A stretch of 64,000 nt of DNA from Flavobacteriales bacterium (GCA_016718655.1 JADKCV010000002.1:87803-151802), one strand, 5' to 3'. Numbered from the stretch's first letter, positions 9,001 through 10,986 are shown. The notes: generated from the sequence alone by a model not told the origin. Numbers and translations are program-made.

Positions 9001-10505
9001 AGCTGCGCTTTTTCTCCCTTATTCCCGGCCCCAGTAGTAGTAAGATCGCCCACTATCTCTACGATGCAGCAGGCTCCCGCATCAAGAAAGTGGTGAACAA
9101 GCCCTTCGGCAAGCAGGAAGTGACCATCTACATCGACGGGGTCTTCGAGCACAGCTACACCAAGGACAGTGGCACACTCGATACCACACGCAACTACAAC
9201 ACGCTGCATGTGATGGATGGGCGTAGTCGCGTCGCAAGTGCACAGGTCGGCACCGATGCCGATGAGCCGACCAACTACCCCGCCATCCGCTACAACCTGG
9301 AGGACCACCTGGGCACCTCAAGCGTCGAACTGGAGGGCGACGGATCGCTCATCAACCGGGAGGAGTATTATCCCTTCGGCGACACCAGCTTCGGTGCATT
9401 TGCGAAGAAGCGATACCGCTATGTGGGCAAGGAGAAGGACGGCGAGAGCGGGCTGTACTACTACGGCGCGCGGTACTATGCGCCGTGGACGTGCCGGTTC
9501 GTGAGCGTGGATCCGTTGGCGCATGACTACCCATATCTCACCCCATATAACTACGCGGGCAACAAGCCGATAGGGGATCTGGATATAGATGGGATGCAGG
9601 GGACGGGAGACCCGCCCGTGAAAGAGGATTCGAGGGTTCAGGCGGACGGGAAGGATGTAATGAATGCGCCGAGGGCCGGTATCAAAGATGCCAAGTACGA
9701 GATCTCAAATCTTCCCAGTGATCCAGCACCAGGTCAGGTAGCGTCTTACCACTATACGGAAAAGGGGGACTCTGGTATCCACCAAGTGGATTGGGTCTAT
9801 GACCAAGAGGCAGACAAGTGGGGCGCTACATATCACTACGGATGGGACATGGCCGGGACCAACACCGTGATGCCTCCGAGTATCCAAGCAGAACACACGC
9901 CCAGCGCTGCGCAGCGTGATGGGACACACGTAGAAGGAGGGGGCGACACGACTAGTTCGAGTGCGTTAGAAAAGGTTGCCAGTGCGAGTGAGGCAGTCGC
10001 CAAGGCGGTCGCCGAGAATGAGAAATACGCCGCCCCAGTCGCACTCATTTCTGAGGCGCTTTCTGATGGATTGAAGGAGGCTGCTGACCGATTGCCACAT
10101 CCACCGGACAACAAGGTTCCATGGAACATTAACAAGTTCAATGAAGAGTACGTCCGCAAGGCCAACCCTCAGAACAATAGGTTAATCACGCTAGGCAAGC
10201 TAAAGCAGTCATGGGCTAAGGCACTCGCGCCTGCTGCACGCCTGATCAACAAGGTTGCGCCAGTGATCGGTGGTGTCGCCACCCTATACGATTCTTTGAA
10301 GGATGGGAAGGTATCTGCTGGTGACGTAGTACGTGTTGGTCTATTCGCAGTTGGTGTTGCCGTTCCGGTGTTCGGATTGGCGCTTGGTGCCGCCGATGTG
10401 ATTGGGGAGTACTTCTTCGGCAAGAGCCTGACTGGGAAAATTGCCGAGTCAATTGATTCGTTCAAACTACCCACGTTGGATATCAGTGGTCTGAAATTCT
10501 GGTAG
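3003..10505 (+). CDS. fused TcB-TcC toxin-complex protein: SpvB domain, FG-GAP/integrin-like beta-propeller, RHS/YD-repeat cocoon, RHS core, C-terminal hypervariable toxin domain
   Basis: N-terminal SpvB signature (GGGAVAGMGESFSPDLFTGTGNFSVPI...GLGWNMSLPGVARKT). Repeated Dx[DN]GDGxxD[LI]V motifs (VDLDGNGLPDFV, MDADGDGRVDLV, MDLSGDGRTDVL, ADMSGDGLADIV, LGDADGDGQTDVIYV). More than 15 YD/RHS repeats (YDALGRPQRTVNPD, YRYDIKGQLLEVRDPLDRACFTHKYDTAGN, YDGLNRVRKSVYP, YAYDPVTYRLQRI, YLYDLVGNIIGMRD, FAYDPLNRLLTA, YDANGNLIG). RHS-associated core GARYYAPWTCRFVSVDPLA...YNYAGNKPIGDLDIDGM with both conserved Asp positions present. It is followed by ~300 aa of unrelated lower-GC sequence. Confidence 0.85.
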   Translation: MSQEQKSALGSNVISLPKGGGAVAGMGESFSPDLFTGTGNFSVPIAVPPGRNGLQPSLTVGYSTGSGNGPFGLGWNMSLPGVARKTNLGIPRYDDTKDVFVLSGAEDLIPVERGQEVVEGVAHIWMRYQPRTEGLFARIIHHTYSDGRDFWEVRTKDGMVTWYGNPDAIGANNTTLFDPENQRHIAQWSIFRTVDPFGNEVVYSYEREVQLSPYPFAQLYLKRITYADYTHNDIKRHFCSVELDYSERPDPHSEYRQGFEIRTTRRCTAVRTFTHPLDGDMPAGHAPSGNDDNTVAVKSYVLTYRDELGHEAHNKVSQLAQVQATGHDRASDGTPITESLPPVEFEYQDFDITKRDLRPIKGEHLPALGLNHPDMDLVDLDGNGLPDFVQMSAGQPIRYWSNKGDGAFALPRTMRNAPTGLALGSEAVQLMDADGDGRVDLVMNAANFAGYYSLNHDGEWDKDSFRKYDTRPPVNLQSTQAQFMDLSGDGRTDVLINADRFICYFQNSPLLDTNRNFDGLQFESRAIGWSEARFVNKAGLDDFPNVNFGDPRIRTADMSGDGLADIVQIHDGGISYWPNLGYGRFGKRRLMRNSPRLGYGFNPAQLILGDADGDGQTDVIYVERNQITIWFNQSGNGFSDPVTIQGTPSFTNRDSVRMVDLFGTGTPGILWSYELGAPGAPLGARMMYLDLTGGVKPYVMVGMRNNLGARTRVQYGTSTAHYLRDTYRRPMRDEAYDQLGEFVGYAGKWKTTLPFPTQVVDRVEVIDEISKGKLTTRYFYHHGYWDGGEREFRGFGRVDQFDTETFEAYNTDSLILEADPLGSPVPLGVSAEHYAPPVLAKNWFHLGPVGAEKGDWKEVDFANEYWSGDTNILERDPAMLQMIAGLPRRARRDAFRTLRGTALRSELYAMDGTPLASRPYTVSETQTGLRLVDGPNTNATIKALAVQTHSNHIFFSFGLSSRSTTWERGTDPMTKFSFTGGIDAYGQPLSQISIAVPRGKDPRTGGELQGHSGDYDPARGYDATIQYTTYIYVDPRIDPISAVEGAIAPTFPGQYVVDRAKQARSYEAVNDGSMSVFALRDELLRPRDEWSIATPCLLALGNTYYDGVAFDGDDFGKLGAYGVPVRTEALMVQPEELDAVYGDGLGDHPAPFYNTGTAPDWSTLPADFVSALQHEHCGYMYHGAGGAFGEDYVAGYYTSAQRTRFDFHDDPGTAKGLPVAMRDVFDHEASIEYDDYQLLPVKVTDPVGMETTSEYDYRVLQPSRVTDPNENSSAFAFTPLGLMHRTALLGKDQGTEGDTLDDPGVLLEYDLFAFKNSGTPVWVKTTQRVHHINADYLEEIGQVAAAETIIAVEYSDGFGRQLQTRTQAEDLLFGVDFANGAVLGDGGLPADQTANNAPAIGVMRDANAPLNVVVSGAKRYNNKGKVVEQLEPYFGSGFALSSPEVLEGLEGLEAPGQRVRIYYDALGRPQRTVNPDNTEQQVVYGVPNLLNTPGSFSPSPWERFTYDANDLAPITHPGNTLSASHHWTPKSELIDALGRTVRTVEHITQLSPAGADDTQVRADDVVMTYRYDIKGQLLEVRDPLDRACFTHKYDTAGNNLWTEHLDSGAKTLVVDAQGKPIYSSDAKDAAVYTAYDTLNRPTDIWARDKGGEDITLRQHMVFGDAAHPDPLPGNHQGKLWKHYDEAGLATITAYDFKGNPLEKVRQVVADSELTGANKYVVEWTGMAVPLDAKEYVTGLLYDGLNRVRKSVYPEDVDSARKELIPTYNRAGALQAITFDGTDYVRHIAYNAKGQRVLLAMGLPAGQVGNGMMTRYAYDPVTYRLQRIKSEKYTQSGETYTPDGHVQQDLGYLYDLVGNIIGMRDKAPATGSAKGPGDLLKQFAYDPLNRLLTATGRESTQAPVLPEWDTSIRNHDHTATNTYTRAYQFDKLGNVQQEQHTADGNPSNSFTKTFAYHATQEHNKLLSFTVGGTTYEQTYDANGNLIGDDTSRVYAWGYEDKLRFFSLIPGPSSSKIAHYLYDAAGSRIKKVVNKPFGKQEVTIYIDGVFEHSYTKDSGTLDTTRNYNTLHVMDGRSRVASAQVGTDADEPTNYPAIRYNLEDHLGTSSVELEGDGSLINREEYYPFGDTSFGAFAKKRYRYVGKEKDGESGLYYYGARYYAPWTCRFVSVDPLAHDYPYLTPYNYAGNKPIGDLDIDGMQGTGDPPVKEDSRVQADGKDVMNAPRAGIKDAKYEISNLPSDPAPGQVASYHYTEKGDSGIHQVDWVYDQEADKWGATYHYGWDMAGTNTVMPPSIQAEHTPSAAQRDGTHVEGGGDTTSSSALEKVASASEAVAKAVAENEKYAAPVALISEALSDGLKEAADRLPHPPDNKVPWNINKFNEEYVRKANPQNNRLITLGKLKQSWAKALAPAARLINKVAPVIGGVATLYDSLKDGKVSAGDVVRVGLFAVGVAVPVFGLALGAADVIGEYFFGKSLTGKIAESIDSFKLPTLDISGLKFW

Positions 10506-10518
10506 CTCCAGCTCCTAC

Positions 10519-10986
10519 ATGCGTTTCTACATCCACATCCTAGACGGATACTTCCACATTGAAAGTGATCTGCAATGTTGCCCCAAGCGCTTTTCCATTG
10601 GGGAGCTTTTGCAGCGGCCATTGTATGAACCCAATTGGTACCTGATACCGGAAGACCACGACACTTCTTTGATCTTGGACTTCGCGAAGAGTTGTGCAAC
10701 TAGCTTTAAGGAGCGCCTCTACCTCCGACTAGGGTGGAGCACCGTAGTTGTCGTTACCTACAAAGAACCCGTTGACGATCTTGTCATGCGAACACTAGTG
10801 GAGATCGGGACTTCGTTCTTAGATGCGAATAGAACGCTGGTGCTGGATTCGATGGCTGATGTAGCGCATGGTGCGACAAGGAACAAGCTCCTTCACAAGC
10901 ACATCCTGCATCGAATTGTCCTCGAACGTCGCTTCAAACAGACCCGCGACAGCACGTATTCAGTTCGTCTCCCGAAAGAGCCCTGA
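10519..10986 (+). CDS. putative cognate immunity protein for the TcC/RHS C-terminal toxin tip
   Basis: A 155-aa ORF starting 13 nt after the toxin stop, on the same strand and in a low-GC stretch. Gene order matches the polymorphic-toxin plus immunity arrangement. No recognisable family. Confidence 0.5.
   Translation: MRFYIHILDGYFHIESDLQCCPKRFSIGELLQRPLYEPNWYLIPEDHDTSLILDFAKSCATSFKERLYLRLGWSTVVVVTYKEPVDDLVMRTLVEIGTSFLDANRTLVLDSMADVAHGATRNKLLHKHILHRIVLERRFKQTRDSTYSVRLPKEP

Follow-up and report, generated by a model that had tools for sequence, protein, structure and literature searches.

Research on Tc (ABC) toxins treats them as protein injectors of insecticidal and medical use, and a genome-wide survey of their loci revealed no predicted immunity proteins, a finding that was taken to fit an anti-eukaryotic role (PMC7861908). 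How, then, should one read a Tc toxin gene that, unlike the surveyed ones, is followed by an immunity-like partner gene and an array of further cassettes? The locus raising this question belongs to a freshwater Flavobacteriales bacterium and was analysed within a stretch of 64,000 nucleotides (GCA_016718655.1, JADKCV010000002.1:87803-151802), which we refer to in its full length as the window. It comprises a gene for a TcA component (the A2-like part) and a gene for a TcB-TcC fusion protein, whose last 302 residues, here called the tip, are succeeded by an open reading frame (ORF) of 155 codons, ORF155. The answer that we favor, and that we hold to be moderately probable, is that tip and ORF155 constitute an exchangeable end of the Tc cargo: a membrane-damaging domain paired with its cognate partner, the two being swapped as a cassette by recombination.

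The Tc carrier and the modular structure of its tip

The upstream gene (50..2647, +) encodes a C-terminal, YenA2/TcaB-like TcA subunit with channel and TcB-binding domain, as indicated by its match to the Pfam family TcA_TcB_BD (E 9.7e-51) and to the PDB sequences of YenA2, XptA2 and TcdA1 (E 3e-31 to 1e-22); the N-terminal part of TcA falls outside the 64-kb window. The tip-bearing gene (3003..10505, +) specifies a TcB-TcC fusion, or "BC cocoon", of 2500 amino acids, in which Pfam recognizes SpvB (4e-50), FG-GAP, TcdB_toxin_midN (2e-27), TcdB_toxin_midC (4e-13) and RHS_repeat domains. Among PDB sequences it matches TcdB2-TccC3 (E 6e-138) and also YenB, TcdB1, TccC2 and YenC2, and the alignments with the TcC-type proteins stop at the predicted cleavage site (residues 1523-2197 for TccC2 and 1556-2198/2199 for YenC2). 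The combination of SpvB with the TcdB mid-N and mid-C domains, a TcC-like RHS cocoon ending at the boundary of the hypervariable region (HVR), and an adjacent TcA gene identifies the carrier as a Tc (ABC) toxin's BC component that has TcA upstream, and not as a T6SS-type Rhs protein (T6SS, type VI secretion system). A first-pass annotation of this DNA had spoken of an RHS core; the RHS-repeat cocoon is indeed present, but its carrier is a Tc fusion and not a plain Rhs protein. The distinction matters since it changes the expected route of delivery and makes an immunity-like gene at this position unusual.

In its order of SpvB, FG-GAP, TcdB mid-N/mid-C and RHS cocoon, the fusion resembles Photorhabdus luminescens TcdB2-TccC3 (PDB 4O9X, 6H6E) and Yersinia entomophaga YenB/YenC2 (4IGL), with which it also shares a PxxxxDxxG context followed by an HVR of about 30 kDa, and an upstream TcA gene with a TcB-binding domain. 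It differs from them in that the B and C components are fused, that the host is an environmental member of the Flavobacteriales rather than an enterobacterial insect pathogen, and that its HVR is a hydrophobic-helix domain rather than an enzyme of a known kind, for instance an ADP-ribosyltransferase. The cleavage-site context reads VDPL...PIGDLDIDGM in the translation and thus contains the PxxxxDxxG autoproteolysis motif as defined for TcC proteins (PMC7861908), together with an upstream DP. The predicted aspartyl autoproteolysis motif (P-IGDL-D-ID-G-M; 9567..9596, +) ends with ...NKPIGDLDIDGM (DIDGM) at residue 2198, nt 9596, and with Met2198 as the P-1 residue the fusion is predicted to cleave itself after M2198. 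The 302 residues beyond this site (nt 9597..10502, 32 kDa, isoelectric point (pI) 5.4) form the HVR of the toxin, in agreement with the tip of about 300 residues that the first-pass annotation had placed here.

Both homology and base composition change abruptly at this junction. Similarity to the related loci L027, L009, L001 and L002 breaks off at nt 9610, 14 nt beyond the cleavage codon. The conserved BC part has a GC content of 0.631 and a GC content at third codon positions (GC3) of 0.832, with GC3 still at 0.775 in its final 1.2 kb; the corresponding values are 0.545 and 0.581 for the tip and 0.504 and 0.596 for ORF155. Windows equally poor in GC make up 7% of all 900-nt windows and 2.4% of all 468-nt windows across the 64 kb, whose mean is 0.592 and whose minimum coincides with the stretch from 10 to 16 kb. 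The AT-richer block that had been reported beyond the junction is therefore genuine, and the composition across the junction is not uniform.

The tip itself is modular. Alignments delimit a beta-rich, acidic N-module (residues 1 to ~118; 9597..9950, +), which is common to the proteins P0001, P0002 and P0027 and to locus L009, the match with P0027 covering tip residues 8-104. It is followed by an Ala/Ser/Glu-rich linker (residues 119-166; 9951..10094, +), assigned as helical from its composition and from low-confidence AlphaFold2 helices, and by a basic C-terminal toxin domain with a pI of 9.7 (residues 167-302; 10095..10502, +), defined by HMMER and alignment. Window and L009 are 84% identical at the nucleotide level over 9496-9610 and 9969-10970, with no detectable identity between these segments. 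This pattern indicates a replacement of the N-module in which the linker, the C-terminal domain and ORF155 remained together; judged from these alignments, the N-module recombines independently of the C-terminal domain.

The candidate partner gene ORF155 and its orphan copies

ORF155 (10519..10986, +) encodes a soluble protein of 155 amino acids and 18 kDa, a candidate immunity or neutralising partner. As the first-pass annotation had stated, it starts 13 nt after the toxin stop (spacer 10506..10518, +, retained in alignments) and lies in the same low-GC block. The protein has neither a transmembrane (TM) segment nor a signal peptide; its maximal Kyte-Doolittle hydropathy in a 19-residue window (KD19) is 0.83. 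Neither ORF155 nor its 160-amino-acid homolog from locus L025 (see below) matches any Pfam, NCBIfam or PDB sequence entry or any known immunity family. The close homologs of ORF155 fall into only five clusters (75-91% identity), a search among 185,579 species genomes yielded a single match in a Flavobacteriales metagenome-assembled genome (MAG) from Lake Mendota, and tblastn of plasmids with ORF155 and with the toxin domain gave no match.

What links ORF155 to the tip is its inheritance. It adjoins the same toxin end in the window, in L015 (identical), in L009 (with a 13-nt gap) and in L007, and in the comparison with L009 the divergence of the two genes is matched: the nonsynonymous (dN) and synonymous (dS) values are 0.084 and 0.577 for the toxin end and 0.075 and 0.595 for ORF155. 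In the 91%-identical relative of L007 (208-260 and 1022-1111), a TAG cuts the toxin gene short by 21 codons relative to its normal end, and the ORF155 homolog is followed by an RHS-core fragment (…VTVYIDGVYEH…), which points to a copy that is decaying or orphaned within an array.

A second lineage has the same arrangement. In L025 and L026, the toxin homolog P0018 (33% identical) forms an orphan RHS-end cassette downstream of another SpvB/TcdB fusion, of 2711 amino acids; this cassette has the same N-module (as in P0027), and a soluble 160-amino-acid ORF follows 4 nt after the toxin end. When the ORF155 family profile was aligned with this ORF by hhalign, 104-123 collinear columns scored 34.3, some eight standard deviations (z ~8) above a null of 300 shuffles with a mean of 12.7, a standard deviation of 2.7 and a maximum of 23.9. 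The 156-amino-acid protein of L018 and the 175-amino-acid protein of L025, also encoded downstream and aligned as controls, were rejected as ORF155 homologs at hhalign probabilities of 0.1-0.6%. An abrupt break in homology and composition at the junction, together with a downstream gene that is co-inherited in two independent lineages, is in keeping with a polymorphic toxin-immunity cassette.

ORF155 also occurs without an adjacent toxin, in three contexts: in L003-L006 between a 121-amino-acid gene with a PNP_UDP_1 domain and a LuxC-like gene, in L010-L013 between a DUF433/DUF5615 pair and a dehydrogenase gene, and in L008; all of these are short metagenomic contigs, and the toxin may be located elsewhere in the respective genomes. 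In L003, the homologous DNA begins 27 nt before the ATG and contains ...TTGAAATTCTGGTAG, which encodes L-K-F-W-stop, together with the same spacer, and L008 retains a degraded version of this stub and spacer. Because the distant toxin homolog P0018 likewise ends in KLKFW, the LKFW codons are part of the toxin gene, which makes the orphan copies descendants of a toxin-partner module. The ratio dN/dS lies between 0.13 and 0.25 in all pairs, including the orphans, indicating purifying selection and hence that ORF155 is a real, selected gene wherever it is present.

A housekeeping homolog of ORF155 conserved outside toxin loci had been named in the first-pass annotation as an observation that would speak against a toxin-immunity cassette. 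Homologs outside such loci do exist and formally count against it, but their three contexts are unrelated to each other, the toxin codons and the spacer are kept and selection is purifying, a pattern typical of orphan immunity genes. The notion of a housekeeping gene, prompted by the surroundings of ORF155 in L003, was rejected as the contexts differ among L003-L006, L008 and L010-L013 and the toxin stub is retained.

One could alternatively regard ORF155 as an unrelated mobile or selfish gene that is carried along with the D2 repeats or the transposases of the RAYT type (REP-associated tyrosine transposases, REP denoting repetitive extragenic palindromic sequences) described below, and that is functionally unlinked to the toxin. 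Its presence in at least four genomic contexts, the occurrence of the same D2 repeat behind the copies in L003-L006, the RAYT-like transposase genes directly downstream and the lack of a match to any known immunity family would all be compatible with such a gene. Yet the homologous unit of the orphans includes the last codons of the toxin, whose KFW end is ancestral to the toxin as judged from P0018, and toxin end and ORF155 have diverged in parallel. Moreover, L025 has the remote homolog in the same place behind a toxin end that is itself homologous, with no D2 or RAYT element detected nearby. We consider a mere passenger gene to be very unlikely.

The swapped-in hypervariable tip with a tightly linked partner gene, as proposed in the first-pass annotation, is thus well supported by the related loci. 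We conclude from this genomic behavior that toxin ends of the KFW type have, in all likelihood, their cognate partner in ORF155, whose toxin-less copies behave like orphan immunity genes. A function in immunity is what we infer from that behavior for the protein itself.

The C-terminal domain and its putative membrane activity

A word-indexed search with the tip retrieved only P0001 and P0002 (31-38% identity) as true relatives, the remaining matches being confined to the end of the RHS core. An exhaustive HMMER search of the full library returned 20 representatives: tip residues 1 to ~100 match P0002 and P0027, and residues ~185-290 match 16 diverged proteins of 86-2057 amino acids, always at their C-terminus. 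The members of this C-terminal family (about 20 cluster representatives) are found mostly on RHS proteins of Bacteroidota; the domain follows RHS DPxG ends in P0022, P0023, P0030 and P0033, and P0024 is a DUF6443-RHS protein. In the 16 diverged sequences the residues D236, G237, G242, D243, P257, G260, D267 and D287 (tip numbering) are invariant, and the family consensus runs from KDGxL[ST]xGD through a 23-residue stretch, largely of small or hydrophobic residues and with FPV[YF]G at its center, to a D and, further on, SLTDxI..GIDS. Neither the tip nor the C-terminal family has a significant match in Pfam (also with E up to 10), NCBIfam or the PDB sequences, and a literature search on the motif strings returned nothing relevant. 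From these alignments, the C-terminal ~135 residues represent a recurrent, unannotated family of polymorphic-toxin ends. The earlier description of the tip as novel stands for the family, which is absent from Pfam, NCBIfam and PDB; the tip as such is not unique.

The most conspicuous element of this domain is a TM-like hydrophobic helix, VVRVGLFAVGVAVPVFGLALGAADVIG (tip residues 244-270; 10326..10406, +), recognized by Kyte-Doolittle analysis and alignment and preceded by a conserved KDGxLSxGD turn. Its KD19 reaches 2.21 at tip residues 247-265, it has an invariant proline at its center, 23 residues separate the invariant Asp243 and Asp267 that frame it, and the alignment columns over it are free of gaps throughout the family. 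The hydrophobic segment is long enough to span a bilayer.

The genes downstream of the toxin family in other loci bear on this point as well. A 5-sequence subset of the 16-sequence alignment served as the query for the corresponding locus search. Among nine distant metagenomic loci, six (L016, L017, L019, L022, L023, L024) have immediately behind the toxin a gene for a conserved protein with three TM segments (3-TM) and about 130 amino acids; in L020 this gene is degenerate. A related TM protein of 142-143 amino acids is encoded downstream of P0002 and P0001 in L001 (L001:2034-2465) and L002 (L002:1198-1626) by genes that overlap the toxin stop. Members of the 3-TM family are small (~125-143 amino acids) and carry the motif INYLFYRF..YWAKIFV...YYS..R..K...IPxC; they match no Pfam, NCBIfam or PDB sequence entry. 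Pore-forming or ionophoric toxins, such as the pore-forming colicins and the ionophores of contact-dependent inhibition (CDI) systems, usually have a small multi-pass membrane protein as their partner (cf. PMC11630599). The 3-TM family is therefore probably the membrane immunity protein of this toxin-end family, and its prevalence supports a membrane target for the family. No hidden membrane-protein gene of the kind found in L001 and L002 is present over the 3' end of the toxin gene in any frame of the window. Since a TM-like helix is combined with a 3-TM downstream partner in most relatives, a membrane-inserting role of the C-terminal domain is plausible.

Small ORFs also follow other TcB-TcC fusions of Bacteroidota, namely those of L025 (L025:1-5949, GCA_030427905.1) and L027 (L027:9956-16054, GCA_016718925.1). 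One of these ORFs again starts 13 nt past the stop, and both fusions are followed by orphan RHS-end/tip cassettes with downstream genes of their own; the toxin-plus-partner layout is hence not peculiar to the window. Downstream partner proteins that are otherwise without detectable similarity start alike, with MRFYIHI (window 10519), MQFYIQA (L025:2522), MKFVLKI (L025:5467) and MKIYIQF (L018:~2004), which may reflect a shared first beta-strand or a constraint on translation initiation.

Several known systems offer instructive parallels for a membrane-active cargo. Tse5 (RhsP1) of Pseudomonas aeruginosa, with its immunity protein Tsi5, is reported to be a C-terminal pore-forming toxin fragment that is held in an RHS cocoon and freed by autoproteolysis (PMC9637101, PMC10684867); the tip would resemble it if its predicted membrane activity is real. 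The tip family, when used to search PDB and Pfam, showed no detectable sequence relationship to Tse5; moreover, Tse5 is delivered by the T6SS, and the partner in our system is soluble. EsxX of Staphylococcus aureus, a membrane-depolarising toxin, has two kinds of immunity proteins: soluble ExiAB, which neutralises it in the cytoplasm, and polytopic ExiCD, which does so at the membrane (PMC12744356). It thereby provides a precedent for a soluble partner of a membrane toxin, and it shares with the family studied here the existence of two unrelated partner types, soluble (ORF155 and the 160-amino-acid protein) and 3-TM, as well as orphan copies in non-producer loci (PMC12744356). The orphans are membrane proteins in the EsxX system and the soluble partner in ours; furthermore, EsxX is an LXG toxin of the type VII secretion system of Firmicutes with a true glycine zipper, and there is no sequence similarity. 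In the ionophore toxins of CDI systems, a variable N-module is likewise joined to a C-terminal helical membrane domain, with independent recombination and polymorphic immunity (PMC11630599); their ionophore domains, located on CdiA, are predicted to be bundles of five helices, and no homology to them was detected.

The EsxX precedent also lends itself to another interpretation, in which ORF155 acts on the producer side as a chaperone or holdase that keeps the hydrophobic cargo soluble and away from the producer's inner membrane until the cocoon encloses it, with eukaryotes (protists, algae or invertebrates, for example) still being the targets of the Tc toxin. The ExiAB heterodimer, which is found alongside the toxin gene, performs precisely this task in the case of EsxX (PMC12744356), Tc toxins are held to be anti-eukaryotic (PMC7861908), the cargo helix is strongly TM-like and is made last in a chain of 2500 residues, and ORF155, devoid of signal peptide and TM segment, is of a cytoplasmic type. 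A pure chaperone would not be expected to persist as an orphan in three contexts under purifying selection (dN/dS of 0.13-0.25), although this argument is softened by the shortness of the contigs. On these grounds we rate a producer-side chaperone as unlikely.

A number of observations weigh against our interpretation of the tip and ORF155 as a membrane toxin with its immunity protein. ORF155 is soluble, yet members of this toxin family usually have a membrane protein as their partner. By the prevailing view, Tc toxins act on eukaryotes and need no immunity (PMC7861908). The pairing of toxin and soluble partner is found in only two independent lineages, and the homology that connects ORF155 with the 160-amino-acid protein is weak (hhalign probability of 65-68%, 22% identity); a large homology search with the latter as the query retrieved only itself and did not strengthen this remote link. 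With a net charge of -6.7 and a pI of 5.4, the tip does not have the charge preferred for the cargo; among natural HVRs, 36.5% lie below pI 7 (PMC7861908). AlphaFold2 models built from shallow alignments are too poor for an inference of the fold, both for the tip (predicted local distance difference test (pLDDT) score of 36.0) and for ORF155 (pLDDT 49.8), and a Foldseek search of the PDB with the ORF155 model gave no hit with E below 0.08, the TM-scores not exceeding 0.33. The glycine zipper of the first-pass annotation fared less well than the hydrophobic stretch it was assigned to: the stretch contains a single GxxxG (GLALG, tip residues 260-264), kept in 15 of the 16 aligned sequences including the window, and GxxxGxxxG, the strict form of the zipper, is absent from 15 of the 16, again including the window. 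Finally, the four invariant aspartates could mark a catalytic or metal-binding site instead.

This last point leads to the idea that the C-terminal domain acts without forming pores, as a small enzyme or some other kind of toxin, with the aspartates in an active or metal-binding site and the helix as a buried core or a membrane anchor. The invariance of D236, D243, D267 and D287, along with glycines and a proline, in 16 diverged sequences would suit this idea, as would the moderate hydrophobicity of the helix in many homologs (KD19 1.4-1.8), where it contains Asn, Thr and Gln. Conversely, the domain is short (~110 conserved residues), is predicted to be all-helical, lacks the His, Cys, Ser and Glu invariants typical of hydrolases and matches no enzyme family in Pfam, NCBIfam or PDB, and the partner that predominates downstream of it has three TM segments, which recalls pore-forming colicins and CDI ionophores. 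An enzymatic toxin appears quite improbable to us.

If the tip is a membrane-damaging cargo, the following sequence of events can be envisioned. The 2500-residue TcB-TcC fusion would build the RHS cocoon, within which the aspartyl autoprotease site PIGDLDIDG-M2198 would free the final 302 residues, by analogy to TccC3 and YenC2. The cargo, stored unfolded in the cocoon, would then be injected into the target cell through the TcA channel, and its basic (pI 9.7) helical hairpin domain might insert into a membrane and cause ion leakage, either as a pore or as an ionophore. ORF155, most likely a cytoplasmic immunity protein, would bind the toxin domain and neutralise it in the cytoplasm; speculatively, delivery by the Tc machine into the recipient's cytoplasm would fit an immunity protein located there. 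By the observed boundaries, tip and partner together form a recombining cassette with its left edge in the conserved cleavage-site region (9610) and its right edge at a D2 repeat, and single partner genes have reached other loci as orphan copies.

The cassette island and its wider meaning

Tip and ORF155 open a variable low-GC island (9611..16548, +; GC ~0.53 versus 0.59 for the window) that further contains three RAYT-like Y1 transposase genes, five additional small ORFs and repeats of the types D2 and D3. Its borders follow from the comparison with L027, a Flavobacteriales MAG (GCA_016718925.1) that is syntenic with respect to TcA, the BC fusion and the rplQ-rpoA ribosomal operon. Identity between the two loci is 74-77% in TcA (465-2262), 88.8% over 3003-9610 and 98% from 16549 onward (16549-20703). 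Between 9610 and 16549, all content differs except for the RAYT and D2/D3 elements: the island of L027 carries another tip (P0003) with an overlapping 125-amino-acid gene, a fragment with an HEFGH motif (HExxH, of the zinc-metalloprotease type), an orphan RHS end with a 162-amino-acid gene, and one RAYT-like gene. As judged from this synteny, the window is placed as part of a Flavobacteriales chromosome. The Tc genes either diverge much faster than the neighboring chromosome or were exchanged.

Within the 64 kb, the two repeats are confined to 10992-16731. D2, with its 24-nt core GGTCATGTTCCAATCCATCACCTC, is present in five copies (10992-11067, 12133-12208, 12348-12423, 14331-14406 and 16551-16626, +), and D3, of 88 nt, in three (12226-12313, 14424-14511 and 16644-16731, +). 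Four D2 copies stand directly after small ORFs (of 155, 75, 195 and 142 amino acids), the fifth lies beside a RAYT element, and the last copy is the exact right edge (16549) of the region that differs from L027. The repeat is also found after the orphan ORF155 copies in L003-L006 and after the 125-amino-acid partner gene in L027. D2 may be a cassette-junction or recombination site. It was rejected as an attC- or REP-like hairpin or a known RNA, given folding z-scores of -1 to +1 and the lack of an Rfam match.

Of the RAYT-like genes (IS200/Y1; 11096-11823, 12393-13107 and ~14617-15168), two are about 97% identical, bounded by terminal inverted repeats of 31-37 nt and inserted 104 nt and 46 nt past the start of a D2 copy, and the third is divergent. 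The five further small ORFs (11825-12052, 13202-13438, 13742-14329, 15398-15952 and 16115-16543) have no Pfam or NCBIfam match and a low GC content, with a GC3 of 0.42-0.44 in some; orphan immunity genes directed at other toxins are one possible identity for them. Genes elsewhere in the window include those for SecY, EF-G, UvrD, MutS and a protein with a sorting tail of the type IX secretion system (T9SS), and an Rfam scan places two tRNA genes at 56600-56684 and 56759-56831 (-). Three ORFs of ~330 codons at 16810-19618 (+), without a family match and antisense to the rplQ-rpoA-rpsD operon as in L027, are most likely spurious.

The island combines traits of two known kinds of loci. With the Rhs and CDI toxin-immunity cassettes it shares a conserved core, an abruptly variable toxin end, a small co-directional downstream gene, a low GC content, orphan modules of toxin ends and partners (L001, L025, L027) and orphan partner genes elsewhere; it differs in that a Tc cocoon with a TcA injector replaces the T6SS PAAR/VgrG proteins or CdiB, and in its punctuation by D2, D3 and RAYT elements. 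The rAID-1 arrays of Bacteroidales (bioRxiv 10.1101/471110) resemble it as co-directional, low-GC small ORFs with repetitive intergenic sequences in Bacteroidota. Unlike those arrays, the island is attached to a toxin gene, its small ORFs match no known immunity family, and a XerD-family tyrosine recombinase is not among its scanned ORFs, in which only matches to Y1_Tnp and REP_Tyr_transpos were found; no attC-like hairpin was found at its repeats.

A polymorphic toxin tip with its partner gene is, as such, a well-known kind of element. New are the family of the toxin domain and the two families of partners, none of which is annotated, the delimitation of the island by a specific repeat, and the presence of such a cassette, of orphan modules and of an immunity-like gene on Tc BC-fusion genes in Bacteroidota; literature searches revealed no report of Tc loci of this type. 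Cassettes of toxin tip and partner, accompanied by orphan modules, close three Flavobacteriales-type Tc loci: that of the window and those of L025 and L027. It is possible, though rather doubtful at present, that the Tc injectors of environmental Bacteroidota are true polymorphic toxin systems with immunity, which deliver membrane-damaging cargo into the cytoplasm of competing bacteria or of any cell, kin included, with the soluble, cytoplasmic ORF155 family protecting producers and its orphan copies protecting non-producers. In that case, a cognate immunity protein would be on record for a Tc toxin for the first time, and perhaps an interbacterial role as well.

Should the partner indeed be an immunity protein, Tc machines would join the interbacterial or self-protected polymorphic toxins. 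The tip would furthermore offer a natural example of a hydrophobic and acidic cargo for the engineering of Tc translocation, and an unannotated toxin domain with soluble as well as 3-TM partner families provides a testable system for compartment-specific immunity. The repeat-delimited cassette island, in turn, may reveal how the tips of these toxins are exchanged.

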